Below, piece after piece: positions 4,753 to 48,911 of a stretch of 53,103 bases of DNA. How positions within the stretch are numbered: position 1 is the stretch's first letter; each line of letters opens with the position of its first letter. A program made the translations under genes and the position numbers. Source of the DNA: Promethearchaeota archaeon (lineage in GTDB: Archaea > Asgardarchaeota > Lokiarchaeia > Sigyniarchaeales > SOKP01); the NCBI GenBank assembly GCA_019894885.1, contig JAGXNP010000001.1, positions 1-53,103 of the forward strand. The letters run 5' to 3'. The notes under the pieces are model-generated. The model searched no databases. It was not told the origin of the DNA and worked only from the letters and a program-made list of their open reading frames with translations.

Positions 4753-4895
4753 TTTATAGTTCCATAAGATAAGTCAATTATGTTTCAATATTCACTGTAG
4801 TCATAGAAATAGGGAATTTGATATTCTCTTTAATAAAACTGAGTTCTAAAGTGCATGGAGTAAAAAATATATATTCCTTATATTCAGCAAATATA

Positions 4896-4915
4896 ATGCT
4901 TCTTATATGAAGCAT
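4896..4915. promoter_or_regulatory. Palindrome ATGCTTC-N6-GAAGCAT about 105 nt upstream of the acyl-CoA dehydrogenase start (candidate operator)
   Basis: Perfect 7-bp inverted arms read directly from the sequence. There is no other support. Confidence 0.2.
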
Positions 4916-5020
4916 AAGCTTAAATACTACTCTATAACACGGATGAATTTATCTTATAGGATAATTTAAATTATAGTATATATTTAAAAAATAAAAAGAA
5001 AAAGACTTAGTAGTGATTTT

Positions 5021-6175: not shown

Positions 6176-6333
6176 CTGATTTAAATGAGATTCATTATTA
6201 TTAAATAACTAATTTTTCTTTCATATTTTTGTTCCATTATCGGAAAATTTATTTTTCTTAAATAAATTATTCGTTTTAACAAAAAATTGTATGTATTAAA
6301 TTAAGATAGGGCTATAGAAGGTGTGATTTAGAT

Positions 6334-7137: not shown

Positions 7138-7149
7138 GAGGAATTATAG

Positions 7150-8352
7150 TTGAGCGTTATTATTGACGAAGAACAATGCACAGGGTGCGGGAACTGTGTT
7201 GATAGTTGCCCATATGGAGCAATTGAATTAGAAAACAATAAAGCAACAGTGTTACCAAATTGTAATCTTTGTGGAGTATGCATAGACAATTGTCCTCTGA
7301 AGGCAATAAGTCTAGAGCGAGATAAAGAGTCAGGGGAAAAAATAGATTTATCTCAGTATAAAGGTGTTTGGGTTATAGCAGAACACTACAAACAGATAGT
7401 TCACAAAGTAGCATTCCAATTGTTAGGAAAAGGACGAGAATTGTCAAATCTATTAGATTCAACATTAACATTCGTAATTTTAGGAGCAAATTTCGACGAA
7501 AAACTAGGAGATTTTAGTGAATATGGAATGGATGAGATAATCTACGTCAAATCACCTATTTTAAAAGATTATTATTCAGATTTATATGTAAAAGTAATTT
7601 CAGAACTTATCGAAGAGCATAAACCTGAGATAATTCTTATTGGAGCTACTCCAACGGGAAGGGACTTTGCGCCTAGAGTAGCTAAAAGACTACACGCAGG
7701 GTTGACAGCAGACTGTACGGGTTTGGATATAAATCCCGAGACTAAAAATCTTCTTCAAACTCGTCCAACATTTGGTGGAAATATCATGGCCACTATTAGA
7801 ACTCCTTTTAGTAGGCCTCAAATGGCTACAGTAAGACCAGGGGTTTTTAAAGCACTTAAAAAGATTAAAAAAGAGGTACCAGTTAAGGTAATTGATTACA
7901 AATTTACAGCAAAAGATACAGTTTCAAAAATAATAAAAATAATAAATACCAGTAAATCTACAGTAAATTTGGAAGATGCGAAAATTATCGTAGCTGGCGG
8001 ACGAGGTGTAGGTTCTAAAGAGAACTTTAAACTTATAGAAGATTTAGCAAAAGCTTTAGGAGCTGAGATAGGAGGGTCTAGAATTACAGTTGAGTTAAAT
8101 TGGGTTGATCCAGATAGACAAATAGGTCAAACAGGCAAAACAGTTTCTCCTAAACTATATATAGCTTGTGGTATTTCCGGAGCCGTTCAACATATCGTTG
8201 GTATGGAAAACTCAGATGTTATTGTAGCAATTAATAAAGATCCAAATGCTCCTATTTTTGGATTTGCTCACTATGGAATTGTGGGTAATTTAAATGATAT
8301 TATTCCCCTTTTAATAGAGGAAATAAATAAATTAAATTTAAATAAAGAGTAA
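7150..8352 (+). CDS. etfA: Electron transfer flavoprotein alpha subunit with a fused N-terminal 2x[4Fe-4S] ferredoxin domain
   Basis: CTGCGNCVDSCP and CNLCGVCIDNCP precede a canonical EtfA body (IVAGGRGVGS, YIACGISGAVQHIVGM). TTG start, with GAGG 9 nt upstream. Confidence 0.9.
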   Translation: MSVIIDEEQCTGCGNCVDSCPYGAIELENNKATVLPNCNLCGVCIDNCPLKAISLERDKESGEKIDLSQYKGVWVIAEHYKQIVHKVAFQLLGKGRELSNLLDSTLTFVILGANFDEKLGDFSEYGMDEIIYVKSPILKDYYSDLYVKVISELIEEHKPEIILIGATPTGRDFAPRVAKRLHAGLTADCTGLDINPETKNLLQTRPTFGGNIMATIRTPFSRPQMATVRPGVFKALKKIKKEVPVKVIDYKFTAKDTVSKIIKIINTSKSTVNLEDAKIIVAGGRGVGSKENFKLIEDLAKALGAEIGGSRITVELNWVDPDRQIGQTGKTVSPKLYIACGISGAVQHIVGMENSDVIVAINKDPNAPIFGFAHYGIVGNLNDIIPLLIEEINKLNLNKE

Positions 8353-9474
8353 TAAGTTGGTAAAACTATTTGAGCTTTAAATTTTATCGAGCTTACCACC
8401 ATTTTAATTTTAAAATTTAATAATATTTTAAAATTGTTTAAAATTTAGTTTTAACTTCAAAATAAGATAATATTTTAAAAATGAGTTAAGAAATTAATAA
8501 ATAGTAATTCATTTTTTGACCAAGCATACAATGCCTTATATCTAATCTATTACTCCAAAATTTTGAAAAACCACGAAAAAAACTTAAATAACGATTTTTA
8601 AAGGCTCTACTTTCGTTAAGTAAAACTTGAAATGAAAATTATAGTAATATAAATAAAAAAAAAAGTAATGGAATGCAATTACTTTTAGCGGGAAAAACTC
8701 ATTCGTGGAGGAATAAATTATGGGCTAAAATCGAAACATTCCACTACAAGATAGAAAATCGAAATTTTCTAAACATAATATAGATTCATAATAATTTAAA
8801 GTTATCGATATATTGGTTAAATTTACAAACGCTCTGTTTGAATATTCAATAAATTAAAATGATATTAGCACAATTGAAATATCATATCTCTTGTTTTAAC
8901 TATATAATCTTAGGATTAAAAATAAATATTAGCAAAACTCACGATTTTTATTTAAAAAAAAAATTTTTCTCGAATCTCTTCGAATATATTTTAATTTATT
9001 TGAAATTTATTATCCAAATTTGTGTGTGAAATTTTTAATCTAGGTGCAAAAACAAGTTCAAAATCTATTTTTATTAAAAACTTAATAAGCAAAAAGTCTA
9101 CATCTAATGACATATACAGTGCTAATCTTCACGAAATAGAACTTAATTTAAAATTTCATAGCTTATCTTAAATAATACTATGCAGATCTAAATGTATTTT
9201 CGCAGATTTTTGTAATTTCTTTTTTTTATTTGCTTCTCTGCACCAATCATAATTTAGATATGGATAAATTACATACTTTTGAACGAATTTCACTTAGAAG
9301 TAATCCTAAGTTCAGAAAATTTTCTTTTTCAAATGTTTTCAACCCATCCTTAAATTCGAAAGGTTTGCCCATTCATTTCCCATTATCCAACTTAATAAAT
9401 AATTTAATTATATTAAAGTTACTAATTAAAAATAAAAAGGATAGAAAACGCCTAATTTTAAATACGAGCTAATT

Positions 9475-10095
9475 ATGGAAGTAAAGAGCTATAATTTATT
9501 GAATGTAGGGGTAGGAGGTCAAGGCGTAATTAGAGCAGCACAAATACTTTCATATGCTGCGCTGTTAGATGATTATAAGGTTAGAACTGCTGAAACTCAT
9601 GGTATGGCACAAAGGGGCGGTTCAGTTGCATCATATCTTCGATTTGGAACTGAAGTAGAAGGTCCATTAATTCCTCGGGGGAAAACAAACACAATTTTAG
9701 CTTTTGAAGCTAGCGAAGCTGTTAGAATTTTTAATTATGCTGGGCCAGAAACTGTGTTTCTGATAAATGAAAGCATAATAGTTCCACCAATGATTCATCA
9801 AATGGGAATGGACTACCCAAAGTTAACAGAGATACGCACTTTCTTGAAAGAAGTGTCAGTACATCTCTATTTTATTGAAGGTGTAGAGATTGCTACAAGT
9901 GTGGGGAATGTTCGAACTATGAATGTTGTAATGTTGGGAGCCTTAATAGGATTAGATGTAATACCGCTTAAAAAAGAAACTCTTGAGAAAGCTATCTTAA
10001 GTTATCTACCTTCAAAGTTGCATGATATAAACAAGAAAGCATTTGAAATTGGAATTGAAAAAGGTATAGAATTAAGGGGGGGTTCCATTGATTAG
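9475..10095 (+). CDS. iorB: Indolepyruvate:ferredoxin oxidoreductase beta subunit
   Basis: VGGQGVIRAAQIL...ETHGMAQRGGSV, typical of the 2-oxoacid:ferredoxin oxidoreductase gamma/IorB fold. It lies directly upstream of iorA. Confidence 0.85.
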   Translation: MEVKSYNLLNVGVGGQGVIRAAQILSYAALLDDYKVRTAETHGMAQRGGSVASYLRFGTEVEGPLIPRGKTNTILAFEASEAVRIFNYAGPETVFLINESIIVPPMIHQMGMDYPKLTEIRTFLKEVSVHLYFIEGVEIATSVGNVRTMNVVMLGALIGLDVIPLKKETLEKAILSYLPSKLHDINKKAFEIGIEKGIELRGGSID

Positions 10096-11992
10096 ACCAG
10101 AATTTGCTGAGGAGAATCCAGGAAAAAAAATAATAATGTTGGGAAATGAGGCAATCGCCAGAGGAATTCTAGAAGCGGGAGTTGTAATTGGTGCGGGTTA
10201 TCCAGGCACGCCTTCATCAGAAATATTACTAACATTAGCGGAAATGCAAAAGTTTTATCCCCACCTCAAATTAGAATGGAGCGTAAATGAAAAAGTAGGT
10301 TTTGAGGTTGCATACGGCGGTTCGATGTCGAACGTACGTTCAGTTGCAGTTATGAAGCATGTTGGAGTCAATGTTGCATCAGATGCCTTCATGACAGCAT
10401 GTTATGCAGGAGCGAGAGGTGGAATGGTTTTGATCTCGGCAGACGATCCTAATTGTTATTCCTCTCAAAATGAACAAGATAACAGATACTTTGGATTACA
10501 TGCTCTTGTGCCTGTCTTTGAACCTTCAACTCCACAGGAAGCAAAAGACATGATAAAGTACGCATTTGATTTTTCAGAAGAATACCAGTCCTTAGTGTTG
10601 TTCCGCACTACAACTAGGTTAAATCACGGGAGAGCAGATGTAATACTTGGAGAAGTGAAAGTTATAGATCGTGATTATGGGTTTGATTGGGACCGCTCCA
10701 GATGGGTTTGTTTGCCTTCTCACTCACGAGTATTACGTTTGAGGTTGTTGGAAAGATTAGAAGAGATTTCCAATTATGCTGATGAGTTTCCGTTTAATTC
10801 ACTAAAATTATCGGGGAAAAAAATTAACGGTATAAAATATGGATTTGTTGCAGCAGGAGTACCATATTCTCAGTTGTTAGATGCCCTTAATTACTACGGT
10901 ATTGCTGATAAAGTTTCAATTTTAAAACTTGGATTAGTTTTTCCTCCACCTAAGGAGTTAATAAAGAAATTATTTGCTTACTCAGACGAAATCGTAGTAG
11001 TGGAGGAACTCGAACCTTTCCTTGAAAATATCATGAAGCAAATTGCGTTTGAAGAAGGCTACTCAAAAGAGTTAACTATTCATGGTAAAGATATTTTTCC
11101 CCAAAATGGAGAATTTTCTGGAGAAATCTACTTAGAAAATATTGCTCGGTTGATTGGTTTATCTTATAAGAAAGTTTCTGTTCCTGAAAACATATTAATT
11201 ATCCCTCCAAGGCTTCCCATCTTATGTCCGGGCTGTGGACATCGATCGACATTCTATGCGATTAATCAAGTAGAAAAGATGATGAAGACTAAATTTGTGA
11301 ACTCATCTGACATTGGTTGTTATACTCTCGCAGTTTACAAACCATTAGAGGGAATAGACACAGAAGTGTGCATGGGAGGCTCAATTGGTTTAGCAAACGG
11401 AATTGCGAAAGTTCAAAGTTTAGATAATCCCGTCTTGGCAATTTTAGGTGATTCTACATTTTTCCATTCTGGGATTCCAGCTTTGATCAATGCTGTATTT
11501 AACAAAAATAATATGCTAGTCGTTATTTTGGATAACAGATCAACAAGTATGACGGGTTTTCAAGATAACCCAGGTACAGGTATTACCATCACTAACGAAC
11601 CCGGTACACACATTGTTCTAGAAGATCTTGTGAAAGGTTGTGGCGTCTCTCCCGAGAAGATCTGGGTTGAAGATGCTTATAAATTGAACGAGACAATTGA
11701 AAAGCTTGAAGAAGCAGTCAAGACAGAGGGAGTTCGAGTTTTCATTTCTCGACATTTATGTTCCTTAGTAGAGTCTAACCAATTTCGGGCTCAACAAATT
11801 ATAACACCCTCCATATTGGTAGATCAAGAAAAATGCAATGGTTGTTTGATATGTGTTAATAAATTTGGGTGTCAAGCATTAAATTTTAATGAGGTTTATA
11901 AAAACGTTACAATTGAGAGTTCTGAATGTAGGGGGTGCAAAGTGTGTATAGATGTTTGTCCCCAACATGCGATATATGAGGAGATTGAATAA
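10088..11992 (+). CDS. iorA: Indolepyruvate:ferredoxin oxidoreductase alpha subunit
   Basis: LGNEAIARGILEAGV...GYPGTPSSE N-terminus, TPP motif GDSTFFHSG, and a C-terminal 2x[4Fe-4S] region (CNGCLICV..., CRGCKVCIDVCP). The TTG start overlaps iorB by 8 nt. An alternative ATG lies at 10136. Confidence 0.9.
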   Translation: MIRPEFAEENPGKKIIMLGNEAIARGILEAGVVIGAGYPGTPSSEILLTLAEMQKFYPHLKLEWSVNEKVGFEVAYGGSMSNVRSVAVMKHVGVNVASDAFMTACYAGARGGMVLISADDPNCYSSQNEQDNRYFGLHALVPVFEPSTPQEAKDMIKYAFDFSEEYQSLVLFRTTTRLNHGRADVILGEVKVIDRDYGFDWDRSRWVCLPSHSRVLRLRLLERLEEISNYADEFPFNSLKLSGKKINGIKYGFVAAGVPYSQLLDALNYYGIADKVSILKLGLVFPPPKELIKKLFAYSDEIVVVEELEPFLENIMKQIAFEEGYSKELTIHGKDIFPQNGEFSGEIYLENIARLIGLSYKKVSVPENILIIPPRLPILCPGCGHRSTFYAINQVEKMMKTKFVNSSDIGCYTLAVYKPLEGIDTEVCMGGSIGLANGIAKVQSLDNPVLAILGDSTFFHSGIPALINAVFNKNNMLVVILDNRSTSMTGFQDNPGTGITITNEPGTHIVLEDLVKGCGVSPEKIWVEDAYKLNETIEKLEEAVKTEGVRVFISRHLCSLVESNQFRAQQIITPSILVDQEKCNGCLICVNKFGCQALNFNEVYKNVTIESSECRGCKVCIDVCPQHAIYEEIE

Positions 11993-11995
11993 AAC

Positions 11996-13363
11996 ATGAT
12001 TTCTCTTTTTTTTTTCCCCAAAACTATTGCTATCATCGGTGCGACTGCTAATCCAAAAAAGTTTGGAAATGCTGTTACCATAAATATTCTTCAAAACAAA
12101 GACCTTGCTAGTGAATTATATCTTATAACTCAAAATAATAAGGAAATTCTTGGAATTAAATGTTATAAAAGCATTTTAGATATTCATAAAGACATCGATC
12201 TAGCAATAATTTTAGTTCCTGCTAAAGCAGTAATCAGTGTAATTGATGAATGTATTGAAAAGCATGTAAAATGTGTAATAATTATAACTGCTGGGTTTGG
12301 AGAAATTAATCAAGAAGGTAAAAAAGCTGAAGAATTAATTGCACAAAAATGTAAAATAGCGAGAATTCGAGTTATGGGACCAAATTGCGTTGGAATACAA
12401 AATCTTGATATCGGCCTTAACGCTTCTTTTATACAAGCAGCTCCATGTGGGAATATTAGCATGATTAGTCAATCAGGTTCATTTAGCTGTGCTAGTTTTT
12501 ATGCTATGGATCGAGAAAATATCGGTTGCTCTAAATTTGCGAATATCGGGAATAGTATTGATGTTTCATTTGATGAAATTCTTAAATTTTATAAAGAGGA
12601 TGCGAACACAAAAATAATATGTATCTACATGGAAACAGTTGAGGGAGGAAGGATACTATTAAATACGCTAAAAACAATTGTTCCTATTAAACCAGTTATC
12701 ATTTTAAAGGGAGGTCGAACTCCATCGGGGATGAAAGCTGCAAGTAGTCACACAGGTTCAATAGCCACAAACTATAAAATGTTGAAAACTTCTATGCAAC
12801 AAGCAGGAGCAACATTATGTGAAAATGCTACTGATTTTATTACCGCTTTAAAAGCATTTTCATTTTTACCCAACGCTAAGGGTGAAAGAATAGGAGTTTT
12901 GACGAATAGTGGTGGAAGTTCTGTTTTGTTTAGCGATAAGGTAGAAGAGTTTAATCTAAGATTAGCTGAGTTTTCCGATGCTCTCATAGAAAAAATTCAA
13001 CCCTATTTGATTTCGCTTGTTAAAATTCAGAATCCTCTTGACATGATAGGCGTAGCTGCTGAGCAACAGTATTACGAGATAACAAAAGCTATGTTGGAAG
13101 ATTCAGGTATAGATATAGTTGTCCCATGTTTGGTTATTCCCCCATTCTTAGAAATGAAATCTGATGAACACTTTAGGGGAATGATAAGAGCTTGGAATGA
13201 AACGGGAAGATTAAAACCATTGGTGCCTTTAGTTTTTTTTGGAGAAAATTTCATTGATCTAAAGGAACTTGCTAAAAAAGAGGAAGCACCCGTGTTTTAT
13301 ACTCCAACGGAGGCAGCTTATGCGATAAAAGTGCTGTTAGATCGCATGAAATTAAAAATATAG
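11996..13363 (+). CDS. acdA: ADP-forming acyl-CoA synthetase, alpha (CoA-binding/phosphohistidine) subunit-like
   Basis: FFPKTIAIIGAT CoA-binding N-terminus, MGPNCVGI, and the phosphohistidine loop AASSHTGSIA. It starts 4 nt after the iorA stop. Confidence 0.8.
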   Translation: MISLFFFPKTIAIIGATANPKKFGNAVTINILQNKDLASELYLITQNNKEILGIKCYKSILDIHKDIDLAIILVPAKAVISVIDECIEKHVKCVIIITAGFGEINQEGKKAEELIAQKCKIARIRVMGPNCVGIQNLDIGLNASFIQAAPCGNISMISQSGSFSCASFYAMDRENIGCSKFANIGNSIDVSFDEILKFYKEDANTKIICIYMETVEGGRILLNTLKTIVPIKPVIILKGGRTPSGMKAASSHTGSIATNYKMLKTSMQQAGATLCENATDFITALKAFSFLPNAKGERIGVLTNSGGSSVLFSDKVEEFNLRLAEFSDALIEKIQPYLISLVKIQNPLDMIGVAAEQQYYEITKAMLEDSGIDIVVPCLVIPPFLEMKSDEHFRGMIRAWNETGRLKPLVPLVFFGENFIDLKELAKKEEAPVFYTPTEAAYAIKVLLDRMKLKI

Positions 13364-13401
13364 GATCTAAATTTAAAAAATGGTAATTTTAGAATTTTAA
13401 C

Positions 13402-13824
13402 TTATTTGAAATCTTCCATCACTTCAAAACCATGCTCTTTTAAAACATTTATTCCTTTTTCGTTATCATCTAGTCTCAGAACTGTCATTGTACTTATTTC
13501 TGACGACTTTTCTGCAAAAGTATACATATATTCGATATTTATATTGTGATTTCCAAGGGTTTTAGCGATATTATACAATTGAGTGATGTTATCTGATAAC
13601 TTTACAGCGATAACTTCCGTTACTGAATGTAAATAATCTTTATCTTCTAATAATTCAATACATTTCTCATAGGGGTTGACCAGGAGTAATAGTAATCCAT
13701 AATCTTCTGTTTCAGCAACAGTTAAAGATCTTATGTATATTTTATTGCTCATTAGAAATTCAAAGAAATTAGCTAATTGCCCTGGTTTATTTGGGAGGAA
13801 CACAGATATTTGTTTTAACGGCAT
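13402..13824 (-). CDS. ACT-domain (small-ligand binding) protein
   Basis: Two beta-alpha-beta-beta-alpha-beta-like halves. The N-terminus ISVFLPNKPGQLANFFEFL is typical of ACT domains. Confidence 0.6.
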   Translation of the reverse strand: MPLKQISVFLPNKPGQLANFFEFLMSNKIYIRSLTVAETEDYGLLLLLVNPYEKCIELLEDKDYLHSVTEVIAVKLSDNITQLYNIAKTLGNHNINIEYMYTFAEKSSEISTMTVLRLDDNEKGINVLKEHGFEVMEDFK

Positions 13825-18925: not shown

Positions 18926-21900
18926 GTGAAAATTATAAAAAATAAAAAAAAAATAACACCATTAATAGCAATTAGTTTATTCATATTGCTTAGCGCATTT
19001 AATATAAGTTCTGGTATAGCAATTCATATGCAAGGTGACGGAGCAACCTTTAACCTTGATAAAGCGGATCCGGTAGGATACGGTGTTTATATTCCAGCAC
19101 CAAATATGTATACTACTATGTCGATAAGTGGGTCAAATCAGGGAGAATTTGTTGCGATGGATTGGCTCGGAGGAATATTACATACAGAAACCGTAAATTA
19201 TCCAGGAGATGATGTAAGCTATATATATCCGAGGTACTTTGAAAATTATGTAATTGATAGTACGACTGACAATGACTATATTAACCCTTGGTCAGCTGAA
19301 TGGCTGAATGTAAGTGCATATGATGCAGAAAGTGATACTTTATCACCTTATACTTTGAATAGTGTGTTTGACTATCATGTCATGGCTGAAGGAAGCGAAT
19401 TAATTGTGCCATTAAATAATTCTTTACCAATGCAAATTGACATAATGATTGATAGTACAGGACCTAAAATATTAAAATTTGATTGGTTAACTGATAATCC
19501 CGCGGGCGTAATGTATGGTTATGAATTAATATCCCCATCAGGAAAAATAGTGATGACAGATTTTCAAACTGCTCAGACTGCAGTTATGGCTTCAATTAGT
19601 GTGTTTAATTATATTGCATTTGTAGCTAATAACATTGGTACATATAGATTATTGGTAACTGCTTCTTATACTCAACCTGCTTATTTAAATTTGAAATTTT
19701 TACAGACTTCCATAACTACCTTGCCTTTAGAAAAATTGACCTTTGGAGGAAATAGTGATGAAAATCCTACTGCACAAGAGATGTGGGATATAGAATGGCA
19801 ATCCAACTGGTTCAAGATTAATGGGAAAAAAGGAGATCTCTATAGATTAGATTTAGGATTAGATTTTAGCGCTATTGCTCCCATGATAGATGCATGGTTG
19901 CCATGTGAAAATAACTATATTTTAGATTCTAGTATTACACCGGGAGTTTACGATCTTTACTTCCCTAACAGTGGTGCTGCATATATTTCTTTCAACGACG
20001 CGACATATGGTATATGGTATAGATATTCGTTATACTTGAGTGAAATTGAAGTTTTAAATTATGATATTGGGGATAGTACAACCAATATAAGAATATCAAG
20101 GGACCAAAGGAAAGCTATAGATTTTACAATAGAGCAGGATTCGTTTGTAAGATTCAACTATACTGAATGGGGCGATGGAAATGCTCAAGTATCTTCAATG
20201 GGAACAACTAACGGTTTTATTTTTAAAGATGCTAAAAAACTTGCCTGTTATGAAGTTTTAAGTCCTCTTGAAACTAAATCAGAAGGTACTATGAATTTCT
20301 ACTACTATTATTTCCCTGCGGGGGAATATGAAGCAAAAATTATCAATGGAAATCCACTTTATGACAGTGTACTACAAATTAGTTCTGAATATGTATCTGA
20401 CGCGAACTCAACAATTCCAATAACTAGTTTATCATATCCTTTAACTAATCCAACATCATCTGTAACTGCTCAATTTGAACCTGATGAATTCTATACTAGT
20501 CTTAAACAGGGTCAATGGTTTGATATTAATATCGCAGAAACCGGTCAATATAGATTTAATTGGTCAATATTTGCTTCTGATAATTTAGCACAAATTCCCA
20601 CTATAGCAAACCCATCGGTTGTTCTTGTGTATAATGGTTCCACAGGAGAATATTACGATTATACTACAAGGTCACATACTTATCTTCAATCGTTCCCTGC
20701 TCTTGATACTCCAAATGATTTTCTCTACATTGCATATCCAAGTAAATGGCATGATATGCACTTTAATATAACCCAATTAGGGACACTTGGTGGCGTAGAT
20801 TCTGGAGTAGATGTCTGGGATGGCGATAGTTGGGATGAATTAGCACAAACATCTGATACTACTGGTGAATTTCAAACTGCTAATGGATCATGGGTTATGA
20901 ATATTTATGGTGACGCTGATTTTGGAGATTGGACAAAAGGCGTAGGAACTACATTCGATCGCAACGGTATTGATGAGGAAATGTATTATTGGTTGAGATT
21001 TGACTGCGATAATGCTTATTCGACTATACCTTATATTGATTTAATAAGTTTATCAAATATAACGATGCGCGGAGATGTAAATTTTGCTCTAGTGAGGGAT
21101 AGCGGGTATGAATATTGTGATTTCTGGACGCCAACTGCTCCATCTAGTATTACGGATATTCTTATAAACCAAGAATCGGGATGGGACTTATTTAGTAATG
21201 AACAATGGCTTTTTGGCGCTACAAGTGATCCCTACATTATAGGATTAGAAGAAGGTAACTATAAGTTATTGGTAATTCCTGAACAATGGTCACATCCAGG
21301 ATCATTAAATATTAGATTTGCTATTGAGGACTATTGGGGATATCATGTTGAGCAATCCCATACAATCGATCAGAATCCTGTTGCCCATTCATGGCAAATC
21401 GGAAATATGGTCAATGTAGGTGATTCAATTTTATATAACTACTCAACTTATCCTTATGATTTAAGTCTTACTTATAACGACACTGAAGTAAGTTGGACAC
21501 TGGGAGGTGAAGCATATATTGCTGTTAAATGCTCTGGAACGCCATATAGTTGGACACAATTAGTCGTTGAAAGTGTAAATATTACTAACTATGAACTTTA
21601 TATATTGCAAGACCTTCCATGGATTAATAATAACGGTCCATACTTAGAAACAAGGTTGATAGATAGTAATATAGGGGATAATAATACTATTGAATTTGGC
21701 GTAATAAGAGACAATTTTACTTTACTCTTTGAAATTCTAGGTGACGGAAGTCCAAACGAAATGGTTACATTAAATATAGGGATAAGACAATATAACACCA
21801 CAGCATTGTATGCCAGTGAAATCACTGCAACATCCACTCCTCCTGGACCAGATCTAGGTCCACTTATATTAACTTTATTGATTGCAATACCCGCAGGTGC

Positions 21901-21967
21901 AGGAGCCGTCGTTGTTGTTTATGTCTTGAAGAAGAAGGGAAAAATTTTAACAAAACATCCAACTTAA
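18926..21967 (+). CDS. Large secreted/surface protein (1013 aa) with an N-terminal signal anchor and a C-terminal TM anchor
   Basis: N-terminus KKKITPLIAISLFILLSAF. The C-terminus is PPGPDLGPLILTLLIAIPAGAGAVVVVYVLKKKGK. It has many N-x-S/T sequons, and I recognised no enzymatic motif. GTG start. Confidence 0.7.
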   Translation: MKIIKNKKKITPLIAISLFILLSAFNISSGIAIHMQGDGATFNLDKADPVGYGVYIPAPNMYTTMSISGSNQGEFVAMDWLGGILHTETVNYPGDDVSYIYPRYFENYVIDSTTDNDYINPWSAEWLNVSAYDAESDTLSPYTLNSVFDYHVMAEGSELIVPLNNSLPMQIDIMIDSTGPKILKFDWLTDNPAGVMYGYELISPSGKIVMTDFQTAQTAVMASISVFNYIAFVANNIGTYRLLVTASYTQPAYLNLKFLQTSITTLPLEKLTFGGNSDENPTAQEMWDIEWQSNWFKINGKKGDLYRLDLGLDFSAIAPMIDAWLPCENNYILDSSITPGVYDLYFPNSGAAYISFNDATYGIWYRYSLYLSEIEVLNYDIGDSTTNIRISRDQRKAIDFTIEQDSFVRFNYTEWGDGNAQVSSMGTTNGFIFKDAKKLACYEVLSPLETKSEGTMNFYYYYFPAGEYEAKIINGNPLYDSVLQISSEYVSDANSTIPITSLSYPLTNPTSSVTAQFEPDEFYTSLKQGQWFDINIAETGQYRFNWSIFASDNLAQIPTIANPSVVLVYNGSTGEYYDYTTRSHTYLQSFPALDTPNDFLYIAYPSKWHDMHFNITQLGTLGGVDSGVDVWDGDSWDELAQTSDTTGEFQTANGSWVMNIYGDADFGDWTKGVGTTFDRNGIDEEMYYWLRFDCDNAYSTIPYIDLISLSNITMRGDVNFALVRDSGYEYCDFWTPTAPSSITDILINQESGWDLFSNEQWLFGATSDPYIIGLEEGNYKLLVIPEQWSHPGSLNIRFAIEDYWGYHVEQSHTIDQNPVAHSWQIGNMVNVGDSILYNYSTYPYDLSLTYNDTEVSWTLGGEAYIAVKCSGTPYSWTQLVVESVNITNYELYILQDLPWINNNGPYLETRLIDSNIGDNNTIEFGVIRDNFTLLFEILGDGSPNEMVTLNIGIRQYNTTALYASEITATSTPPGPDLGPLILTLLIAIPAGAGAVVVVYVLKKKGKILTKHPT

Positions 21968-25450: not shown

Positions 25451-26581
25451 ATGATGTCTGAAACTTTTGAGAACTTTATGATCTTCGGACTAGAAAGTAC
25501 CGGAGAAAAAGTAAGGTTAGATATTTCTGAAGATACCTTTCGGTTGAATAACGGTCAAAAGGTATTAGATTCTAACCAAGTGTTAATAATTGTCAAGGAG
25601 GGGATAAGGAGAATCTACATCTGGAAAGGCGTTAATTCACATGTCAGGAAAAAATTTATAGCCTCTCGGATTGCTGCTGAATTACAAAACGATTTGGTTG
25701 TTGCTGGGCATTTTCATCGGTGCAAAATTATCTCAGTAGACCAAGGAGACGAACCTAACGATTTCTTAAGGGCTTTCGGTTTTACGACAGTTGAATTACC
25801 CGGGCTTCTTGATCGTAATTCACAAGAGTTCAAACAAATTCATTCTATATCTGAAAAAACGGCACCAGAATTAGATGGAAAGAAAGTTCATAGTTGGAAC
25901 GGCCCTCCTCCTTCTTTAAAAGGAAATATAGCTTCTCCAACCATTACTCAACCTACGACGAAAATAAAAAAAGAAGAACTTAAAAAGTCAATTAAACCCT
26001 TCAAAACTGACGAAATGGAAATAATTGAGAAAATAGTTAAAAATAATGTTCCAGTCGATCTAAAAAGACAAAACTTAATCTTAGGTAACTTTCAGATTTT
26101 TGGTGCTGCGATTAAAAAGGCTAAAATATTTGGCAAAGAAGTAGAAGAAGTCAAATGGGAACCAGTGAACTCGCTACCAGAAGGAATAATTGAACTGACT
26201 GATCGCACTCTAAGAATATATATCGATGATACCTCTAAAACTATTGAAGGAATAGAAATTCTCCAAAAACTCGATACTCCTCCAGTTATAGAACCATTGG
26301 TTGAAAAGGACGAAGAAGTAGACTACAATGCTTGGACTGTTAAACAACTAAAAATTTATTGCCAAGAGAACAATATAATAGTGCCTGCATCTTACAGAAA
26401 AGCACAAATTGTAAGTCTCATTAAAAACGGTCCATCCCAAGAATCTATTGAACCAGAATCTAATTATAAGACTTGGACAGTAACGCAACTGAAAGAATAC
26501 TGTAAAAAAAACGATATCAAAGTGATTTCTACATACAGAAAAGCAGATCTACTTAAATTGGTAGAAGAACATCAAAAATAG
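25451..26581 (+). CDS. Gelsolin-fold domain protein with a Pro-rich linker, an uncharacterised middle domain and two C-terminal HeH/SAP-like repeats
   Basis: Residues about 35-110 (VLIIVKEGIRRIYIWKGVNSHVRKKFIASRIAAEL...VDQGDEPNDFLRAFG) follow the gelsolin repeat core pattern. There are two 36-aa repeats, YNAWTVKQLKIYCQENNIIVPASYRKAQIVSLIKNG and YKTWTVTQLKEYCKKNDIKVISTYRKADLLKLVEEH. Confidence 0.7.
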   Translation: MMSETFENFMIFGLESTGEKVRLDISEDTFRLNNGQKVLDSNQVLIIVKEGIRRIYIWKGVNSHVRKKFIASRIAAELQNDLVVAGHFHRCKIISVDQGDEPNDFLRAFGFTTVELPGLLDRNSQEFKQIHSISEKTAPELDGKKVHSWNGPPPSLKGNIASPTITQPTTKIKKEELKKSIKPFKTDEMEIIEKIVKNNVPVDLKRQNLILGNFQIFGAAIKKAKIFGKEVEEVKWEPVNSLPEGIIELTDRTLRIYIDDTSKTIEGIEILQKLDTPPVIEPLVEKDEEVDYNAWTVKQLKIYCQENNIIVPASYRKAQIVSLIKNGPSQESIEPESNYKTWTVTQLKEYCKKNDIKVISTYRKADLLKLVEEHQK

Positions 26582-26620: not shown

Positions 26621-29587
26621 TTAATCCTGAGAAGCGTAGAAATCGTCGAAATTCTCTTGTAATTGATCTATGTATAGTTTTCTCTTTCCAGGAATAACTT
26701 TTTTTGTAAGTATTTTTGCTTTCGTGTAGCAGGTGATTGCTTCTTCGAGCATTCCTAAGTGTTTATAGGACAGAGCTAATTTTAGAAAGGTGTGAAAGGC
26801 GAACCAACCTCTTGGGTTGGCTTCTAAAGCTTGGTTAAATTTCTCGATAGCACCTTTATAATTTTTTGAGTTCATCAATACTTCTCCGTATGTATCATAC
26901 AGGTTAGCGTCGAGAGGATCGAGTTCGATGGCTTTTTCAATTGTCTCAAACGCTTCATCGTATTTTCCGATATTACTCAATGAAATTGATCTATTGTTTA
27001 ATAACCCTGGAGAATCCGGATAAAGGTCTAAGGCTTCGTTAAGAGTCTTGAGCACTTCTAAATCTTTACCCATTTTACAATATGTAAATCCTTTCAGTTG
27101 ATATAACGACTTACGCACCTGTGGAAATTTTTTCATCATCTCATCGATTAAGGCCATTACTTCGCTTCTCATATTATCGTTCGTGAGATATAAGTGAATT
27201 TTTGTAGCATAGTAATCGAAGTGGTCAGGGCTTAATTCAATTGCTTTTTCAATTTCAATTAAAGCCGCTTCAGTTCCATCTGTCTCATTTAAAATATAAC
27301 TATACAGTTGATAATACCTAGACAATTGTTTTTCACTCAGCCCCATTGATATCGCCTTCTCAAATTCCTCAACAAAGAGCTCTTTGTCTACTTTACTCGC
27401 ATCAAAATTATATACAATGTTAAATCCGTGAACTAATCCAGTAATAATATGAGAAATTGGGTGATTTGCGTAATGAAATTTTACTTTGTTGACGATGTCT
27501 AAGGCTTTCTCGAATTTTCCTTGTGCTAAATACGAGAAAGATAGTACCAAATACGCTGCCGTATCAACGCGTGGGTTATGTTTGAGTAAATTGAATTCCA
27601 CTACTTGTTTAATCCAATTTTTACCCTCTTTATAATCATTTGTGATCGAGTATAATAGAGCTTTCATTACAGAGAGTTCTAAGTCCTTAGGATTTGTTTC
27701 AATTAGAGAATTAATAAGTTCCATTGGTTCGTCAATTTTTTTTACACAGCACTCTTTATCTGTTAGGATGCACAGGAATTTAGTTCGTTGGAGCAAAAAA
27801 TGATCAGGATATTCAGCTAATGCTTCTTCAACAACGCCTAAAGCTTTATCGTGATCCAGATTGATTAGTATTTGTGCTTTTTGAGCAATAAGCGACACAT
27901 CGTAAGTCTTGCTTAACCCTGATTCGATGACTTCTAACGCTCTATTGAGTTTGCCCATATAGAAATAGGTTATTGATTGAAATAAATAACCAATATATTC
28001 ATTAGGGTGTTTTTTGATAATTTCTTCTGTAAGTTCTAGCGAATCCTCTAATTCCCCGTTGTAAGTGTAAAATAAATCTTTTAGAAGCAATAACTCGATA
28101 TCGCTTAAATTCTTTAGATGCTCTGTAAGCAAGTCGTTTACTTTAGATAGTTTACCTTTCGCTAATTTACGTTCAATGTTCGTTAAGAATTCTAAATTCA
28201 TAGGAAAATATGTCTTTTTGAACTGAGATGTTCTAATAAAGTTAATTTTAGTAAAATAGAATATGTCCAAGGTATCGAAAATTCTGTTGTGTAAGAAATA
28301 ATACGCCTCGCTATCGGCTGATTTATTCATCGTACTTGCCGTTTCAGAGGTATCAAAACTTTGAATTACTTCGAATACATTTTGAAAGGCGATCCCCTTT
28401 ATTTTATCTGTATGGTTGATCAAACTCTTCTCGCTCTCAAATTTATATGCCAAATGCTCGATATACTCAGGAATGAACTTTCTTAGAGCTGGTTTCAAAT
28501 CATCGTGAAACAAATTACTACACATATCGCTCGTTATATCTTCAAGTAACTCGTTGATATCTGGTATGTGATATTGAACGCCACTCGCTTTCTGGAATTT
28601 ACTCAAATAAGTAAACTTCCTAATGTAATCCTCGATAATTACATTGAGCATTTTCTCTAAACGCTCTTCTGCCTGAATATAGTAGGTGTATTTATCGCTT
28701 GCATTTAATTTAAAGAAATGTATCGGATATATGTTATCCTCAACGATCTTCTCGATAAAGAAGTTAAGTGTAGTTAGCTTTATATCATATTCTAAAGCAA
28801 AATCTTTAGCAGTAATGTATTTAGGGTATTGATCCGGGTGATTAATAGCGAGATAAAGCAAAATTTTATCAAAATCCACCTCGTCGGATAAGGTGCTTTC
28901 AACTTTAGTATAATCCAACCTAAGCACAATGTTCAAAAATCTGTATTTAATCCCATCATCATCGATATTATAATCGTTAAAAAACTTCGATACTTTGTCT
29001 GTTATTACCTCAACCCTTTTACTCTCTTCGTCTAATATCGACTGGCGGTCCAAATCGTATTTTTTTAATATATTGAAATATTCTAATTCACCTGAATTAG
29101 TAATTTGATATTCACGGTTATCTTTTTCAACGAAATTTTTATCTAACAAAAGATTCAAATTTTTTGATAATGAAGATTGATTGATATTAAGTGGATCCTC
29201 AAGAAAATCGGACCATTTACAATGGTGGTTATTATATAACATCCAAAGAATCCAATCATCGTAATTTCTCTTATTTGTAATCGTCTCAGGTGGGTAGTTC
29301 AATGTTTTTTCTAGCGCATCTTTAACTTGAATTTCAGCATACTGTTGACGACCTTCAGGAGTAATTTTGTATTCGCCCTTCTTCTCCTTCTCAATAAATC
29401 CATTACTAATTAAGAGGGTAAGATATTTCGACAAAGTTGCGTTACTTATGTTTACAGGATCCGAATTAAAATCAGACCATGAACAATGGTTGTTATTATA
29501 GAGCATCCAGAGTATAATATGCTCAAAATCTTTGTTGATTTTCATAGGGGTAATTATACCTTCAGGTGGAAATTTTACTATACTCAT
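26621..29587 (-). CDS. 988-aa protein with two tandem N-terminal winged-helix-like modules, an unknown central region and a long C-terminal TPR array
   Basis: Duplicated module ILWMLYNN(N/H)HC(S/K)WSDF...LSK(Y/N)L.LL....F(I/V)EK...Y.IT..G at about 29072-29518. The C-terminal half is full of 34-aa TPR-like units (for example YDEAFETIEKAIELDPLDANLYDTYGEVLMNSKNYKGAIEKFNQALEANP). No Walker A motif was seen. Confidence 0.8.
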   Translation of the reverse strand: MSIVKFPPEGIITPMKINKDFEHIILWMLYNNNHCSWSDFNSDPVNISNATLSKYLTLLISNGFIEKEKKGEYKITPEGRQQYAEIQVKDALEKTLNYPPETITNKRNYDDWILWMLYNNHHCKWSDFLEDPLNINQSSLSKNLNLLLDKNFVEKDNREYQITNSGELEYFNILKKYDLDRQSILDEESKRVEVITDKVSKFFNDYNIDDDGIKYRFLNIVLRLDYTKVESTLSDEVDFDKILLYLAINHPDQYPKYITAKDFALEYDIKLTTLNFFIEKIVEDNIYPIHFFKLNASDKYTYYIQAEERLEKMLNVIIEDYIRKFTYLSKFQKASGVQYHIPDINELLEDITSDMCSNLFHDDLKPALRKFIPEYIEHLAYKFESEKSLINHTDKIKGIAFQNVFEVIQSFDTSETASTMNKSADSEAYYFLHNRIFDTLDIFYFTKINFIRTSQFKKTYFPMNLEFLTNIERKLAKGKLSKVNDLLTEHLKNLSDIELLLLKDLFYTYNGELEDSLELTEEIIKKHPNEYIGYLFQSITYFYMGKLNRALEVIESGLSKTYDVSLIAQKAQILINLDHDKALGVVEEALAEYPDHFLLQRTKFLCILTDKECCVKKIDEPMELINSLIETNPKDLELSVMKALLYSITNDYKEGKNWIKQVVEFNLLKHNPRVDTAAYLVLSFSYLAQGKFEKALDIVNKVKFHYANHPISHIITGLVHGFNIVYNFDASKVDKELFVEEFEKAISMGLSEKQLSRYYQLYSYILNETDGTEAALIEIEKAIELSPDHFDYYATKIHLYLTNDNMRSEVMALIDEMMKKFPQVRKSLYQLKGFTYCKMGKDLEVLKTLNEALDLYPDSPGLLNNRSISLSNIGKYDEAFETIEKAIELDPLDANLYDTYGEVLMNSKNYKGAIEKFNQALEANPRGWFAFHTFLKLALSYKHLGMLEEAITCYTKAKILTKKVIPGKRKLYIDQLQENFDDFYASQD

Positions 29588-32657: not shown

Positions 32658-33134
32658 TTACCAACAGCTTGGATCAAAAAATTCATTATACTTTTTCAAC
32701 CAATTAAAAATCGTGTATTTTGAGTAATCTTCAGTTATTTCTTCTCCGATTTGAATATCTCGTTGAGCTACTGAGCGTAAGCCAGTTCCATCTTCAGGTA
32801 ATCCCGAGTTAGGTTTAAACGAATGGTTAACATATCTATTATTGTCCAAAATGAAAATTAAAGCGTCGATATCACGCTCACAATATGAATAGTTGAGTAA
32901 TATAATCATAAAATTTTCGATTTGCGGCGATTTAATGGAGGTATCAAGTATAATGAATTGATCTTTAGTAATAATCATCACATCTTGCTCACGAGCATGC
33001 CACCAAACTGTTCCCTTAGGAATTAATTTTTTTGCAAACAATCCGAACCCATGAATTTTACTTGGTTTTACTACTGCATATTCTTCAATAGGATTAATTG
33101 AACTAGGATTGTATCGTATTACTATATCGGTCAT
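32658..33134 (-). CDS. SET-domain protein (putative protein lysine methyltransferase)
   Basis: HGFGLFA (GxG), RYVNHSFKPN (NHSxxPN) and GEEITEDY (ELxxDY) motifs in the canonical order. Confidence 0.8.
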   Translation of the reverse strand: MTDIVIRYNPSSINPIEEYAVVKPSKIHGFGLFAKKLIPKGTVWWHAREQDVMIITKDQFIILDTSIKSPQIENFMIILLNYSYCERDIDALIFILDNNRYVNHSFKPNSGLPEDGTGLRSVAQRDIQIGEEITEDYSKYTIFNWLKKYNEFFDPSCW

Positions 33135-37374: not shown

Positions 37375-38862
37375 TTAATCTTTAGTTTTTGGATATCTTT
37401 CATGCTTTTGTAAAAATTCACGATACGAGTTTAATTTATCCAATACTGTTCCTGCGAGATCTAAAGATTCAAATACTGGAACGTTTCGATTAAGTAATTT
37501 AAGCTTGAACTTGTATCTACTTTTATACTCTTCAAATCCCTCATTGATTTTCAGCATGACGCAATACATCGGTTTTGTACATACATTCTTCGCTTTTGAT
37601 ATGTATCGAATAAATTCTTTATTTAGATCTAATCCTCCGTATCCTAATTCTTCCAATAAGTCAGCAAATCCTCCAAATCTCTCGGGATCCTTAATAAAAA
37701 TAATAGATGAAATGTTGGGATCTTTATCAAGTGCTAAAATTGTACGATAGTAGATATTGGGTTGGATTCCCATCCCACCTAAATCTATGGGGTTTGACAA
37801 GTTAGTATTTACATCGGGTACGAATCTTTTCATTTTATCGATACTTCTCTCTGATAATTGGGGAATCGTCAGATTATACTTTTCCAAAATATCTATTGCT
37901 TCTATTGTTGAACCCCCACCAATCCCAATCACACCAACGTTTCGCGAATTAGGTAGATGAGTTAAATTAAAAGCAGATGCCAACGCAGCAAGTTCATTTG
38001 AATTACTTGTTATGCAACTCCCACTTTGTTTACCTACAGCCTTCCAAATTTCATTGTTACCTGCTAAACCTCCTGTGTGAGATAATATCGCTTTTTTAGT
38101 TGCTTCTCCGTATCCCGCCCGCCAAAGAATAACAGGTTTGCGATTTAAATTACACTCTTTAACAATATCCATAAATTTTCTTCCTTGTTCAATACTCCTT
38201 AGATTCTCAATGTATAAACCAATAATTTTTGTATGCTCGTCATTTAAGAAATATTCTAAAAATTCAACTGGAGATAGATCGAGGGAGTTCCCTATGGAGA
38301 TTAATTTAGATGCATACAAGCCATAAGATACTATGAGTTGGGAAATATTTTGAGCTATTCCTCCAGATTGAAAAATTCCTCCAAAATTACCATACTTACG
38401 GGATTGCTCGTAAGCAAAAAATAGACCACCTTTAGGATTATAAACACCAATACAATTTGGACCGATGATTCGAATACTATGTTTACGAGCTGTTTCAATA
38501 GTTCGATTTTCTAAATCCTCGTTACCAACTTCACGGAATCCTGAAGAGAAAATTGTGCAAAAGGGAATAGACTTTTGACCTACTTCATCTAAGACCTTTG
38601 GAACTAAGCGTGCTGGAACCGCAATAATAACATAATCTATTGGTTCAGAAATTTCCAAAATTGATGCATAAACTTTCTGTCCATATAATGTTTTTCCAGC
38701 TAACCTTGGATTAAATAAATAGGTTTTTCCTTTAAATTTACCCCTCATAACTCGAACGAAAAAACCTCCACCTGCAGGATCATTGCTTGCTCCTATAATC
38801 CCAATAGCTCTTGGAAAGAATAATCTATTAAAATCTAATGATGATTTTTGTAATGAAGACAT
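37375..38862 (-). CDS. Second ADP-forming acyl-CoA synthetase alpha-subunit-like protein
   Basis: FFPRAIGIIGAS, IGPNCIGV and the phosphohistidine loop AILSHTGGLAG. Confidence 0.8.
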   Translation of the reverse strand: MSSLQKSSLDFNRLFFPRAIGIIGASNDPAGGGFFVRVMRGKFKGKTYLFNPRLAGKTLYGQKVYASILEISEPIDYVIIAVPARLVPKVLDEVGQKSIPFCTIFSSGFREVGNEDLENRTIETARKHSIRIIGPNCIGVYNPKGGLFFAYEQSRKYGNFGGIFQSGGIAQNISQLIVSYGLYASKLISIGNSLDLSPVEFLEYFLNDEHTKIIGLYIENLRSIEQGRKFMDIVKECNLNRKPVILWRAGYGEATKKAILSHTGGLAGNNEIWKAVGKQSGSCITSNSNELAALASAFNLTHLPNSRNVGVIGIGGGSTIEAIDILEKYNLTIPQLSERSIDKMKRFVPDVNTNLSNPIDLGGMGIQPNIYYRTILALDKDPNISSIIFIKDPERFGGFADLLEELGYGGLDLNKEFIRYISKAKNVCTKPMYCVMLKINEGFEEYKSRYKFKLKLLNRNVPVFESLDLAGTVLDKLNSYREFLQKHERYPKTKD

Positions 38863-40563: not shown

Positions 40564-41325
40564 ATGAGCATACATAAAAGTCTAGATGTTGTCCTATATA
40601 AGGGACAAAAATTTAATGTAGAAAATCATGCCTTATACTTAACCAATAAAGGCATAAAAGATATTGATAAAATACAAGGTCTCGAAAAATTATCTAATTT
40701 GCACATTTTAGATTTATCAAACAACCAGATATCTCAAATTAATGGCTTAGACAAACTTAAAGAATTAGAGATTTTATGCTTAAATAATAATCAAATTACT
40801 GAAATAAAAGGTCTTGATAATCTAGAAAACTTAAGGGTATTATGGCTGAAAAAAAACCTAATTTCTGAAATCAAAGGCTTAAATTCTCTTCATAACCTAG
40901 AAGAACTTTGGTTAAAAAAAAATAAGATTTCTAGAATCAGGAATTTAAATAAACTTAAAAAATTAAAATATCTGTGTTTATGTGATAATCTGATTTCTGA
41001 GATTAAGGGACTTGATTCCCTTATTAATTTAAGGAGTTTAAATCTAATAAAAAACAAAATTTCCTCCATAACTAATCTCCAACACTTAATTAATTTAGAA
41101 GATTTAGATTTGAGTTATAATAGAATAAGCGATATTGAAGGATTAGCAAATCTTTCAAATTTATATTTCTTTGGTTGTACGCACAATAAAATAGTTCAAA
41201 TAAAGGAATTAGAAAACTTAAAAAAAATAAGTACAATTTGTTTAGAAGAGAATCCAATAGATCTACAAAAATTAAGAAACAATTATGAAAAAACTTTAAC
41301 CCAAAAAGATAACATCCAAACTTAA
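40564..41325 (+). CDS. Leucine-rich repeat protein (22-residue SDS22-like repeats)
   Basis: About 9 consecutive LxxLxxLxLxxNxIxxIxGLxx units. Confidence 0.9.
   Translation: MSIHKSLDVVLYKGQKFNVENHALYLTNKGIKDIDKIQGLEKLSNLHILDLSNNQISQINGLDKLKELEILCLNNNQITEIKGLDNLENLRVLWLKKNLISEIKGLNSLHNLEELWLKKNKISRIRNLNKLKKLKYLCLCDNLISEIKGLDSLINLRSLNLIKNKISSITNLQHLINLEDLDLSYNRISDIEGLANLSNLYFFGCTHNKIVQIKELENLKKISTICLEENPIDLQKLRNNYEKTLTQKDNIQT
40633..41259 (+). repeat. Tandem 66-nt coding repeats (LRR units)
   Basis: The 22-codon periodicity is visible in the translation from about residue 24 to 232. Confidence 0.7.
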
Positions 41326-45842: not shown

Positions 45843-45895
45843 AATAATTCATCTTTTTAATTATAAAAGTACGTTTTAAAATCGTTATAATTCGA

Positions 45896-48895: not shown

Positions 48896-48911
48896 GAGGA
48901 GATGAAAAACT

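Follow-up and report, generated by a model that had tools for sequence, protein, structure and literature searches.

The subject of this analysis is a stretch of 53,103 nucleotides from a Promethearchaeota archaeon (assembly GCA_019894885.1, contig JAGXNP010000001.1, positions 1 to 53,103; hereafter the window), and in particular one of its genes, which encodes a protein of 376 residues combining an N-terminal gelsolin-fold domain, a flexible basic linker, a β-rich middle domain and two C-terminal motifs of the clan that includes the helix-extended loop-helix (HeH) and SAP families (table 1). By a narrow balance of probability we favor the view, built on sequence comparison and structural models, that this protein is an actin regulator of the 1DGelX type which its basic HeH motifs tether or target to nucleic acid, probably the nucleoid. 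New here are the variant with two HeH motifs and the domain content of the part previously called domain X; the 1DGelX class of Asgard gelsolins itself was already known (Akıl et al. 2020, PNAS 117:19904; PMC7444086).

The identification of the gelsolin domain is sound, as judged from sequence profiles and the predicted structure. In the whole protein the Pfam gelsolin family (PF00626) matches one stretch only, with E = 8e-4 and 19.6 bits against a cutoff of 21; residues 1-120 scanned alone reach 22.3 bits, above the 21-bit gathering score, if only just, and the same match is precomputed for seven orthologs among the matches listed. A phmmer search of the PDB sequences has ProGel of Thorarchaeota (7c2f, chain B) as its top match (E = 1.8e-5), ahead of 2DGel3, adseverin, villin and the 2DGels of Loki and Heimdall, while the profile of 61 diverse family members finds ProGel at 3.7e-9, 2DGel3 at 2e-8 and Loki 2DGel at 6e-7, with adseverin (2e-5) and gelsolin (6e-4) as weaker matches. 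The AlphaFold2 (AF2) model of residues 9-108 shows the topology β-β-α-β-β-long α-β-α, the long helix spanning residues 67-84, with values of the predicted local distance difference test (pLDDT) of ~65-79. Its best Foldseek match is again 7c2f chain B (E = 3.6e-5, template modeling [TM] score 0.79, root-mean-square deviation 2.5 Å), and the next ~35 matches are gelsolin, adseverin, CapG and Sec23 gelsolin-like domains, chains of Sec23a being among the weaker ones. An earlier reading of the same DNA, made from its letters and predicted translations (hereafter the sequence-only reading), had placed a gelsolin core at the N-terminus of the protein, and residues 1-115 indeed match the gelsolin fold significantly by profile as well as by structure, with ProGel the closest relative of residues ~8-112 on both counts. 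The human segment used for comparison in that reading had been labeled as the first gelsolin repeat (G1), but it comes from G2 (residues ~160-190 of mature gelsolin), a harmless mislabel.

Residues invariant in the gelsolin domain of the 61 diverse members include W58, G60, R66, F69, I70, S72, A75 and Q79, as well as H89, K92, D97, G99, E101, P102 and F105. The signature separating gelsolin from cofilin folds is DWG, an aspartate hydrogen-bonded to tryptophan and then a glycine (PMC7444086); in our family W58-K-G60 and D97, its putative counterparts, are invariant. Over all subtypes the most conserved stretch is the long helix 67-84 (VRKKFIASRxAxELQ), which is consistent with a partner that is itself conserved, for example actin.

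The opposite end of the protein carries two direct repeats of 36 residues, the coordinates of which had been given exactly in the sequence-only reading. They are identical at 17 of 36 amino acids (47%) and 66 of 108 nucleotides (61%), and constitute the sole internal self-match of the protein (17-18 identities in 36 versus at most 12 in 36 for unrelated registers); the duplication is visible at the protein level only, since direct repeats at the DNA level within the open reading frame (ORF) amount to short chance matches. The whole protein scores above the Pfam cutoffs for Ish1 (PF10281, 39.5 bits versus 26.6), HeH (PF12949, 35.8 versus 28.9), SAP (PF02037, 31.4 versus 23.9) and Rho_N (PF07498, 27.5 versus 24.9), with Ish1, HeH and SAP each matching two stretches; repeat 2 alone exceeds the cutoffs of SAP (26.6 versus 23.9 bits) and Ish1 (26.8 versus 26.6). 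A scan of the protein against NCBIfam gave no meaningful match. In the AF2 model, helices lie at residues 297-306 and 317-326 in repeat 1 and at 344-353 and 364-375 in repeat 2, with pLDDT of ~78-87 (85-87 in repeat 2), so that both repeats are predicted to be ordered. The HeH signature noticed earlier in their letters is thus borne out by profile matches and by the predicted helix-loop-helix: the two repeats are predicted helix-extended loop-helix units of the HeH/SAP clan. When each is compared with the single HeH of relatives, repeat 1 is closer than repeat 2, at 54% versus 50% for relatives of type b and 41% versus 31% for those of type c.

Between these two ends, the sequence-only reading had recognized, after the linker, a domain of ~110 residues that it could not place. 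The domain is real, but it measures 88 residues rather than 110. With 54 diverse sequences in the alignment, AF2 predicts it at pLDDT 89 and a predicted TM score of 0.75 as one N-terminal helix plus five long antiparallel β-strands, in which R206, G212, W236, R255 and E269 are invariant in 61 loci-derived sequences and at least 90% conserved in a more diverse alignment. Its family profile found no relative among PDB sequences (E > 0.1), and neither did Foldseek in the PDB (best E = 0.4, TM ≤ 0.32, no gelsolin among the matches) or in BFVD (best E = 0.25). When 1.84 billion representative proteins were searched exhaustively with HMMER, no more than 79 clusters emerged, two of which are spurious repeat proteins. 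Every full-length member has the middle domain behind the same gelsolin domain, and the two consequently form an obligate pair that is the core of the family. Three relatives (P0124, P0125 and P0129) have two middle domains in tandem, in a gelsolin-middle-middle-tail layout lacking HeH, which indicates that the middle domain can be duplicated in the manner of a binding module. We considered whether it might be a cryptic second gelsolin repeat, as in 2DGel, and rejected this possibility (hhalign probability 0.6%, no gelsolin in Foldseek); the coiled coil that the 2020 paper predicted for domain X is likewise unsupported for the window protein, for which AF2 gives a β-meander and a disordered linker.

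This linker is the most variable region of the protein, with pLDDT below 50 at residues 130-186 of the AF2 model, a short predicted helix at 125-130 and a net charge of +6 over residues 155-185. Within it lies a linear motif, KKVHxWxGPPP, of which 57 orthologs all share W149 and P154 and at least 90% of them K144, G151 and P153; its column identity is 0.79, versus 0.5-0.6 in the flanking linker. By analogy it may be a WH2-like or a proline-ligand motif, the WH2-like reading drawing only on its position, comparable to that of the short conserved LRRV motif (WH2-like) following domain 1 of 2DGel. Other subtypes have, after the gelsolin domain, an aromatic-Ser-Pro motif (E-Y-[FWY]-S-P-x-L) and a conserved helix, SMEVTERLEDMRYVRNIERE. 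Across the protein, purifying selection acts on all three globular parts and more weakly on the linker, a signal far beyond chance: the ratio of nonsynonymous to synonymous substitution rates (dN/dS) is 0.18-0.25 for the whole gene, 0.07-0.20 for the gelsolin domain, 0.11-0.13 for the middle domain, 0.10-0.31 for the HeH motifs and 0.30-0.63 for the linker.

How widespread is this arrangement? Searches with the window protein gave 412 homologs at E ≤ 1e-3, for the most part full length; the best 120 of these 412 share 58-99% identity with it, and nearly all of them span the full protein. The closest relatives come from MAGs (metagenome-assembled genomes) with the labels Promethearchaeota, Promethearchaeia or Lokiarchaeota, which assigns the window to an Asgard archaeon of Lokiarchaeon type. 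A species-level scan, limited to a single genome for each species, yielded 210 loci, of which 80 were retained, and our survey of architectures compares 69 proteins, 68 from the species level plus that of the window. The succession gelsolin-middle-HeH occurs in 29 of the 69 (~310 residues) and is extended by a conserved C-terminal tail, RRxLPKIP, in another 26 (~360-390 residues); 13 have the two HeH motifs of the window type, and one has the tail directly after the middle domain. At least one HeH copy is therefore present in 68 of the 69 proteins of the survey, whereas a second copy is restricted to the window and its closest loci (L001-L012), the latter making up 12 of the 80 retained loci. 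All named matches derive from MAGs of Asgard archaea (Promethearchaeota/Lokiarchaeota, Thor-, Hermod-, Hod- and Odinarchaeota), and the labels of the 80 retained loci are Promethearchaeota plus Thor-, Hermod-, Hod- and Odinarchaeota. In these data the pair of gelsolin and middle domain is confined to Asgard MAGs. Thorarchaeal members with the layout of gelsolin, middle domain and HeH are L050, L062 and P0258, and single MAGs may contain two or three copies or subtypes, as is the case for DZ3M.289 (L029, L055 and L064). In one relative, P0158, residues 283-343 at the usual position of HeH match instead a helix-hairpin-helix (HhH; PF14520, 27.0 bits, equal to the cutoff). HhH is a module unrelated to HeH that likewise binds DNA non-specifically, being a typical binder of the duplex-DNA backbone.

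Database names for the family are mostly "hypothetical protein," and the few assigned by PGAP are "HeH/LEM domain-containing protein" and [quoted passage not shown] from which it appears that annotation pipelines caught the HeH motif and missed the gelsolin domain. Automated NCBI names of the first kind, already attached to some family members, qualify to this extent the novelty of the architecture.

Most subtypes other than that of the window end, with or without HeH, in the C-terminal peptide R-[RK]-x-L-P-[KE]-I-P-x-x-[DE] (L039, L042, L062 and L063; P0124-P0187), a tail of RRxLPKIP or LPxIP form that the window protein lacks. In these sister subtypes the LPxIP tail bears a putative resemblance to the (L/V)Px(V/L)P MIM2 motif, which binds Vps4 MIT domains. 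The genes for the tail-bearing paralogous subtype (L039-L080) have a neighborhood conserved in ~20-26 species-level MAGs of several Asgard lineages (for example, L071:1705-5771, L053:7179-7832 and L044:7758-8825). Directly upstream, on the same strand, lies the gene for a protein with a Zn-ribbon and a LOR/scramblase (tubby-like) domain; farther upstream are those for a CDP-alcohol phosphatidyltransferase and a ~700-residue protein without Pfam matches, and downstream those for a Zn-ribbon and HEAT-repeat protein, a DeoC aldolase and a DUF711 protein. This neighborhood hints at a membrane or lipid connection of the tail-bearing subtype.

Three gelsolin architectures were described in Asgard archaea by Akıl et al. 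(2020; PMC7444086), namely ProGel, 2DGel and 1DGelX, the last of which occurs in all Asgard phyla and joins a single gelsolin domain to an unassigned domain X. The 1DGelX of Thorarchaeota binds rabbit actin with a dissociation constant of 7.7 µM, nucleates at low ratio and inhibits at equimolar ratio, and severs filaments robustly and independently of calcium, being the most active severing protein of the Asgard set; it runs at about the size of actin (PMC7444086). Its domain X, two-thirds of the protein, was reported as a "predicted coiled coil, no homology" and was not producible, and its discoverers conjectured that it contacts the side of the filament (PMC7444086). The count given in a later paper is two genes for 1DGelX in MKD1 and three in GC14_75, in agreement with the two or three copies of single MAGs in our scan. 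The window protein fits this class by definition of architecture, taxonomy, size and copy number: like the Thor protein, it has a single N-terminal domain of gelsolin/cofilin type and a non-gelsolin C-terminal part, it belongs to an Asgard-specific family with several copies per genome, and its 376 residues compare with 362-390 in the Thor-type relatives. The gelsolin domain of the published 1DGelX is, moreover, ~35% identical to ProGel (PMC7444086), which is also the best PDB match of the window protein. What differs from the published description is the content of domain X, here a new β-rich domain followed by HeH motifs, and the window protein departs from the Thor-type subtype by its two HeH copies and the lack of an RRxLPKIP tail. 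The sequence-only reading had considered the whole architecture to be uncharacterized; this does not hold for the class, since it was known and its Thor member has been characterized biochemically, but it does hold for the β domain and HeH motifs that make up domain X. Our literature search found no paper linking Asgard gelsolins with HeH or SAP motifs.

The other two architectures offer instructive comparisons. ProGel, the counterpart of residues ~8-112, is a single domain free of calcium sites that occupies the G1/cofilin site of actin; however, its ~90 residues stand alone, bind actin weakly and do not sever, whereas the window protein has 260 more residues. The Asgard 2DGels (7c2g/7c2h, 7whg and 7whf) have a homologous gelsolin domain (E from 2e-8 to 3e-4), yet they continue with a second gelsolin domain and have calcium sites, while the second domain of the window protein is not a gelsolin. 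By homology to the characterized Thor proteins, the window protein would bind actin and sever its filaments.

As regards the C-terminal motifs, units of ~35 residues of the HeH type are shared with eukaryotic HeH/LEM-like and SAP proteins such as Heh1/Src1, MAN1, LAP2, SAF-A, Ku70, PIAS and Ish1. In proteins of the inner nuclear membrane, domains of the LEM-like/HeH type bind and tether DNA or chromatin, and SAP motifs were reportedly described by Aravind and Koonin in 2000 as binding DNA or chromatin and tethering it to larger structures. To our knowledge, the eukaryotic HeH/SAP proteins are nuclear or inner-nuclear-membrane proteins, none of which has a gelsolin domain, and the LEM domain proper binds BAF, a protein that archaea, as far as we know, lack. 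A eukaryotic precedent for coupling the state of actin to a DNA-associated function in one polypeptide is provided by MRTF/myocardin, which combine RPEL actin-binding motifs with SAP; they differ in that RPEL, a sensor of G-actin, is unrelated to gelsolin, and in that they are transcription coactivators homologous to the window protein only in the SAP motif. The N-terminal domain of Rho also shares the HeH-type match and has lent its name to some relatives, but Rho differs in having an OB/CSD RNA-binding subdomain and a RecA-type ATPase, neither of which Pfam detects in the window protein, which ends right after the second HeH.

In mechanistic terms, these comparisons suggest the following course of action. 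The ProGel-like head would bind actin at the cleft that separates subdomains 1 and 3, the site seen in the crystal structures of ProGel and 2DGel, and would sever, cap or nucleate lokiactin filaments without calcium, by analogy with Thor 1DGelX. Joined to it by the flexible basic linker with its KKVHxWxGPPP motif, the middle domain would probably supply the second contact that has been postulated, most plausibly with the filament side or else with another fixed partner, and this contact would turn a weak binder such as ProGel into a severing protein. The tandem basic HeH motifs would then most likely bind double-stranded DNA irrespective of its sequence, with the duplication raising avidity in the clade of the window, and the net effect would be to place actin remodeling on the nucleoid or to tether filaments to it. 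That the HeH motifs bind nucleic acid we infer from their membership of the HeH clan, their positive charge, their strong conservation and the one-off replacement by HhH in P0158; tethering of actin to the nucleoid would be a further step, which we only infer.

Several observations weigh against this reading and have to be set beside it. Repeat 1 taken alone stays below the Pfam cutoffs, with 20.9-21.4 bits (E = 2.9e-4 for HeH and 3.2e-4 for Ish1). The HeH clan binds more than DNA: the ligand of LEM is a protein, BAF, and Rho_N takes part in the binding of RNA. Moreover, ~20 divergent representative clusters have no HeH and end in the LPxIP tail only, implying that HeH is dispensable for the core function of the family, and the substitution by HhH is known from a single sequence in one Logan assembly. 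The neighborhood of the gene is uninformative, comprising a transporter of the major facilitator superfamily (MFS), hydrolases and a winged helix-turn-helix (wHTH) protein with tetratricopeptide repeats (TPR). The assignment of the family to 1DGelX is indirect, relying on definition, size, taxonomy and copy number; the Thor 1DGelX protein of SMTZ1-83 is absent from the best 120 matches of a search with the Thor-type subtype. Finally, Thor 1DGelX fused to GFP was excluded from the nucleus of human cells, with enrichment at regions resembling the nuclear membrane or endoplasmic reticulum (PMC7444086). This does not point to a strong affinity for DNA, although a fusion of ~70 kDa without nuclear localization signal may simply fail to enter the nucleus.

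Among the alternatives, the one that survives best, while in our judgment unlikely, takes the whole of domain X including HeH as a second actin-binding region on the filament side, which would position gelsolin for severing and bundling with no involvement of nucleic acid. It would account for the fact that ProGel alone does not sever and 1DGelX does (PMC7444086). Two copies of HeH, or of the middle domain, could confer bivalent binding or bundling of filaments, and acidic F-actin would attract the basic linker and HeH motifs. Conversely, we know of no HeH, SAP, LEM or Rho_N domain that is an actin binder, the exchange of HeH for HhH in P0158 is easier to explain by nucleic-acid binding, and the retention of gelsolin and middle domain in members without HeH makes the middle domain the better candidate for side binding, leaving HeH free for another ligand.

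Lower in probability we rank a membrane-proximal actin regulator, in which the middle domain and the basic linker would target a membrane or membrane protein and the HeH motifs would be modules of protein or lipid interaction. The LOR/scramblase and CDP-alcohol phosphatidyltransferase genes adjoining the tail-bearing paralogous subtype in ~20-26 species-level MAGs speak for this possibility and count against a nucleoid role; they belong, however, to the neighborhood of a different subtype and are absent around the window gene. Similarly, the eukaryotic Ish1 and HeH/LEM families are nuclear-envelope proteins in their Pfam descriptions, but in envelope proteins of eukaryotes HeH faces chromatin or DNA and is not the membrane anchor. 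The window protein itself has no transmembrane segment and no obvious amphipathic or lipidation motif. The human-cell localization of the Thor fusion (PMC7444086), which together with the HeH-less members and the lipid-gene neighborhood keeps this alternative alive, is weak evidence for an archaeal protein.

We give little credence to a third alternative, in which RNA would be the ligand of the HeH motifs, as for Rho_N or Tho1-type SAP, and actin would thereby be linked to the positioning of mRNA or ribosomes. Rho_N does exceed its threshold and several relatives are named by NCBI after the Rho N-terminal domain, and a separation of ribosomes and DNA in space is said, in the title of one report (PMC8776820), to exist in Asgard cells. 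Yet Rho_N is outscored by Ish1, HeH and SAP, the HeH of Rho works with an OB/CSD fold that is absent here, and the HhH replacing HeH in one relative typically binds the backbone of duplex DNA. Least probable of all is a gelsolin fold that does not act on actin, as in the gelsolin-like domain of Sec23/24, within a nucleoid- or partner-associated factor: Sec23a does appear among the weaker Foldseek matches, the full-length Pfam score is borderline and the 53-kb window contains no actin, profilin or Arp genes, but the closest proteins in sequence and structure are the Asgard ProGel and 2DGels, actin regulators that have been co-crystallized with actin, the gelsolin hallmarks W58-x-G60 and D97 are invariant, and the 1DGelX class has demonstrated activities on actin (PMC7444086).

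The surroundings of the gene in the window, which has a G+C content of ~32%, are as follows (table 1). An AT-rich spacer of 320 nt separates the gelsolin gene from a divergent MFS transporter gene upstream, and on its other side the convergent gene for the 988-residue wHTH-TPR protein, which combines a pair of winged-helix domains at its N-terminus with an extended TPR array, is present beside it in 12 of 12 close loci (60-88% identity). The gelsolin gene looks monocistronic; a scan of the locus for promoters and terminators gave background levels, with a sigma-70 consensus that is unsuited to archaea. Synteny of the MFS transporter, two α/β-hydrolases and the wHTH-TPR protein extends to L001-L012 only and is read as shared ancestry, not as functional linkage. 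Farther away, the SET-domain protein may be a lysine methyltransferase that modifies chromatin proteins, and the ABC ATPase, permease and DUF11 genes in a row are possibly a module for the export of surface proteins. The metabolic cluster includes pyridine-nucleotide disulfide oxidoreductase, enoyl-CoA hydratase, a CCG-domain protein, acyl-CoA dehydrogenase, ETF beta and alpha (with ferredoxin domain), the gamma and thiamine pyrophosphate (TPP) subunits of POR and proteins resembling ADP-forming acyl-CoA synthetase, a content typical of fermentation or β-oxidation; the remaining genes of the window are metabolic as well (β-oxidation/ETF, POR and acetyl-CoA synthetase type) or encode transporters.

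Table 1. Coordinates, in nucleotides of the window, of the gelsolin-HeH gene, its parts and other features.
Feature	Position	Strand	Basis or remark
Complete ORF including stop codon, 376 aa, ATG start	25451..26581	+	Start shared by >100 full-length orthologs
Gelsolin/ProGel-type domain, residues ~8-112	25472..25786	+	Pfam PF00626, family profile, Foldseek
Basic linker, predicted disordered, residues 113-185	25787..26005	+	Low pLDDT, lowest conservation, highest dN/dS
KKVHxWxGPPP linear motif within linker, residues 144-154	25880..25912	+	Conservation
Family-specific middle domain (core of domain X), residues 186-273, 88 aa	26006..26269	+	AF2, alignments
HeH/SAP-type motif 1, residues 291-326, net charge +3	26321..26428	+	Pfam, AF2
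HeH/SAP-type motif 2, residues 338-373, net charge +4 (counted to C-terminus)	26462..26569	+	Pfam, AF2
988-aa wHTH-TPR protein, converging on the gelsolin gene 39 nt downstream	26621-29587	-	HTH_45, HTH_34, MarR-like
1013-aa ORF	18926-21967	+	No Pfam family at E ≤ 1e-3; partial match in one related locus (L002)
157-aa SET-domain protein	32658-33134	-	Syntenic in L001 and L006
253-aa leucine-rich-repeat protein (LRR_4 ×7)	40564-41325	+	
ABC ATPase, 999-aa FtsX/MacB-like permease and 1321-aa TRAP-beta-like/DUF11 protein in a row	44664-52877	+	
Metabolic cluster	563-13824 and 37375-38862		

In evolutionary terms, we venture a broader hypothesis, which we think rather doubtful at present: the 1DGelX family would be a system of Asgard archaea for coupling actin to the nucleoid, with a severing head, a new β module for the filament side or a partner and an HeH anchor to chromosomal DNA, and it would be a forerunner of the HeH/LEM tethering of chromatin at the nuclear periphery of eukaryotes, while the LPxIP tail of the sister subtypes would recruit a partner, possibly ESCRT/Vps4 through a MIM2-like contact. 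Independently of its fate, the analysis gives a testable map of domain X, consisting of a compact, family-defining β domain with no relative in the searched libraries and of one or two HeH/SAP motifs, the motif by which eukaryotes hold chromatin at the nuclear periphery; the construct boundaries that it offers (residues 1-115, 186-275 and 285-376) should make the protein tractable. If DNA is not a ligand of the HeH motifs, the gene simply adds a member to an Asgard family already known. If it is, the family would link actin dynamics physically to the chromosome in a cell without nucleus, and this would be relevant to how Asgard cells position and segregate their chromosomes, as well as to the evolutionary source of nuclear-envelope tethers.

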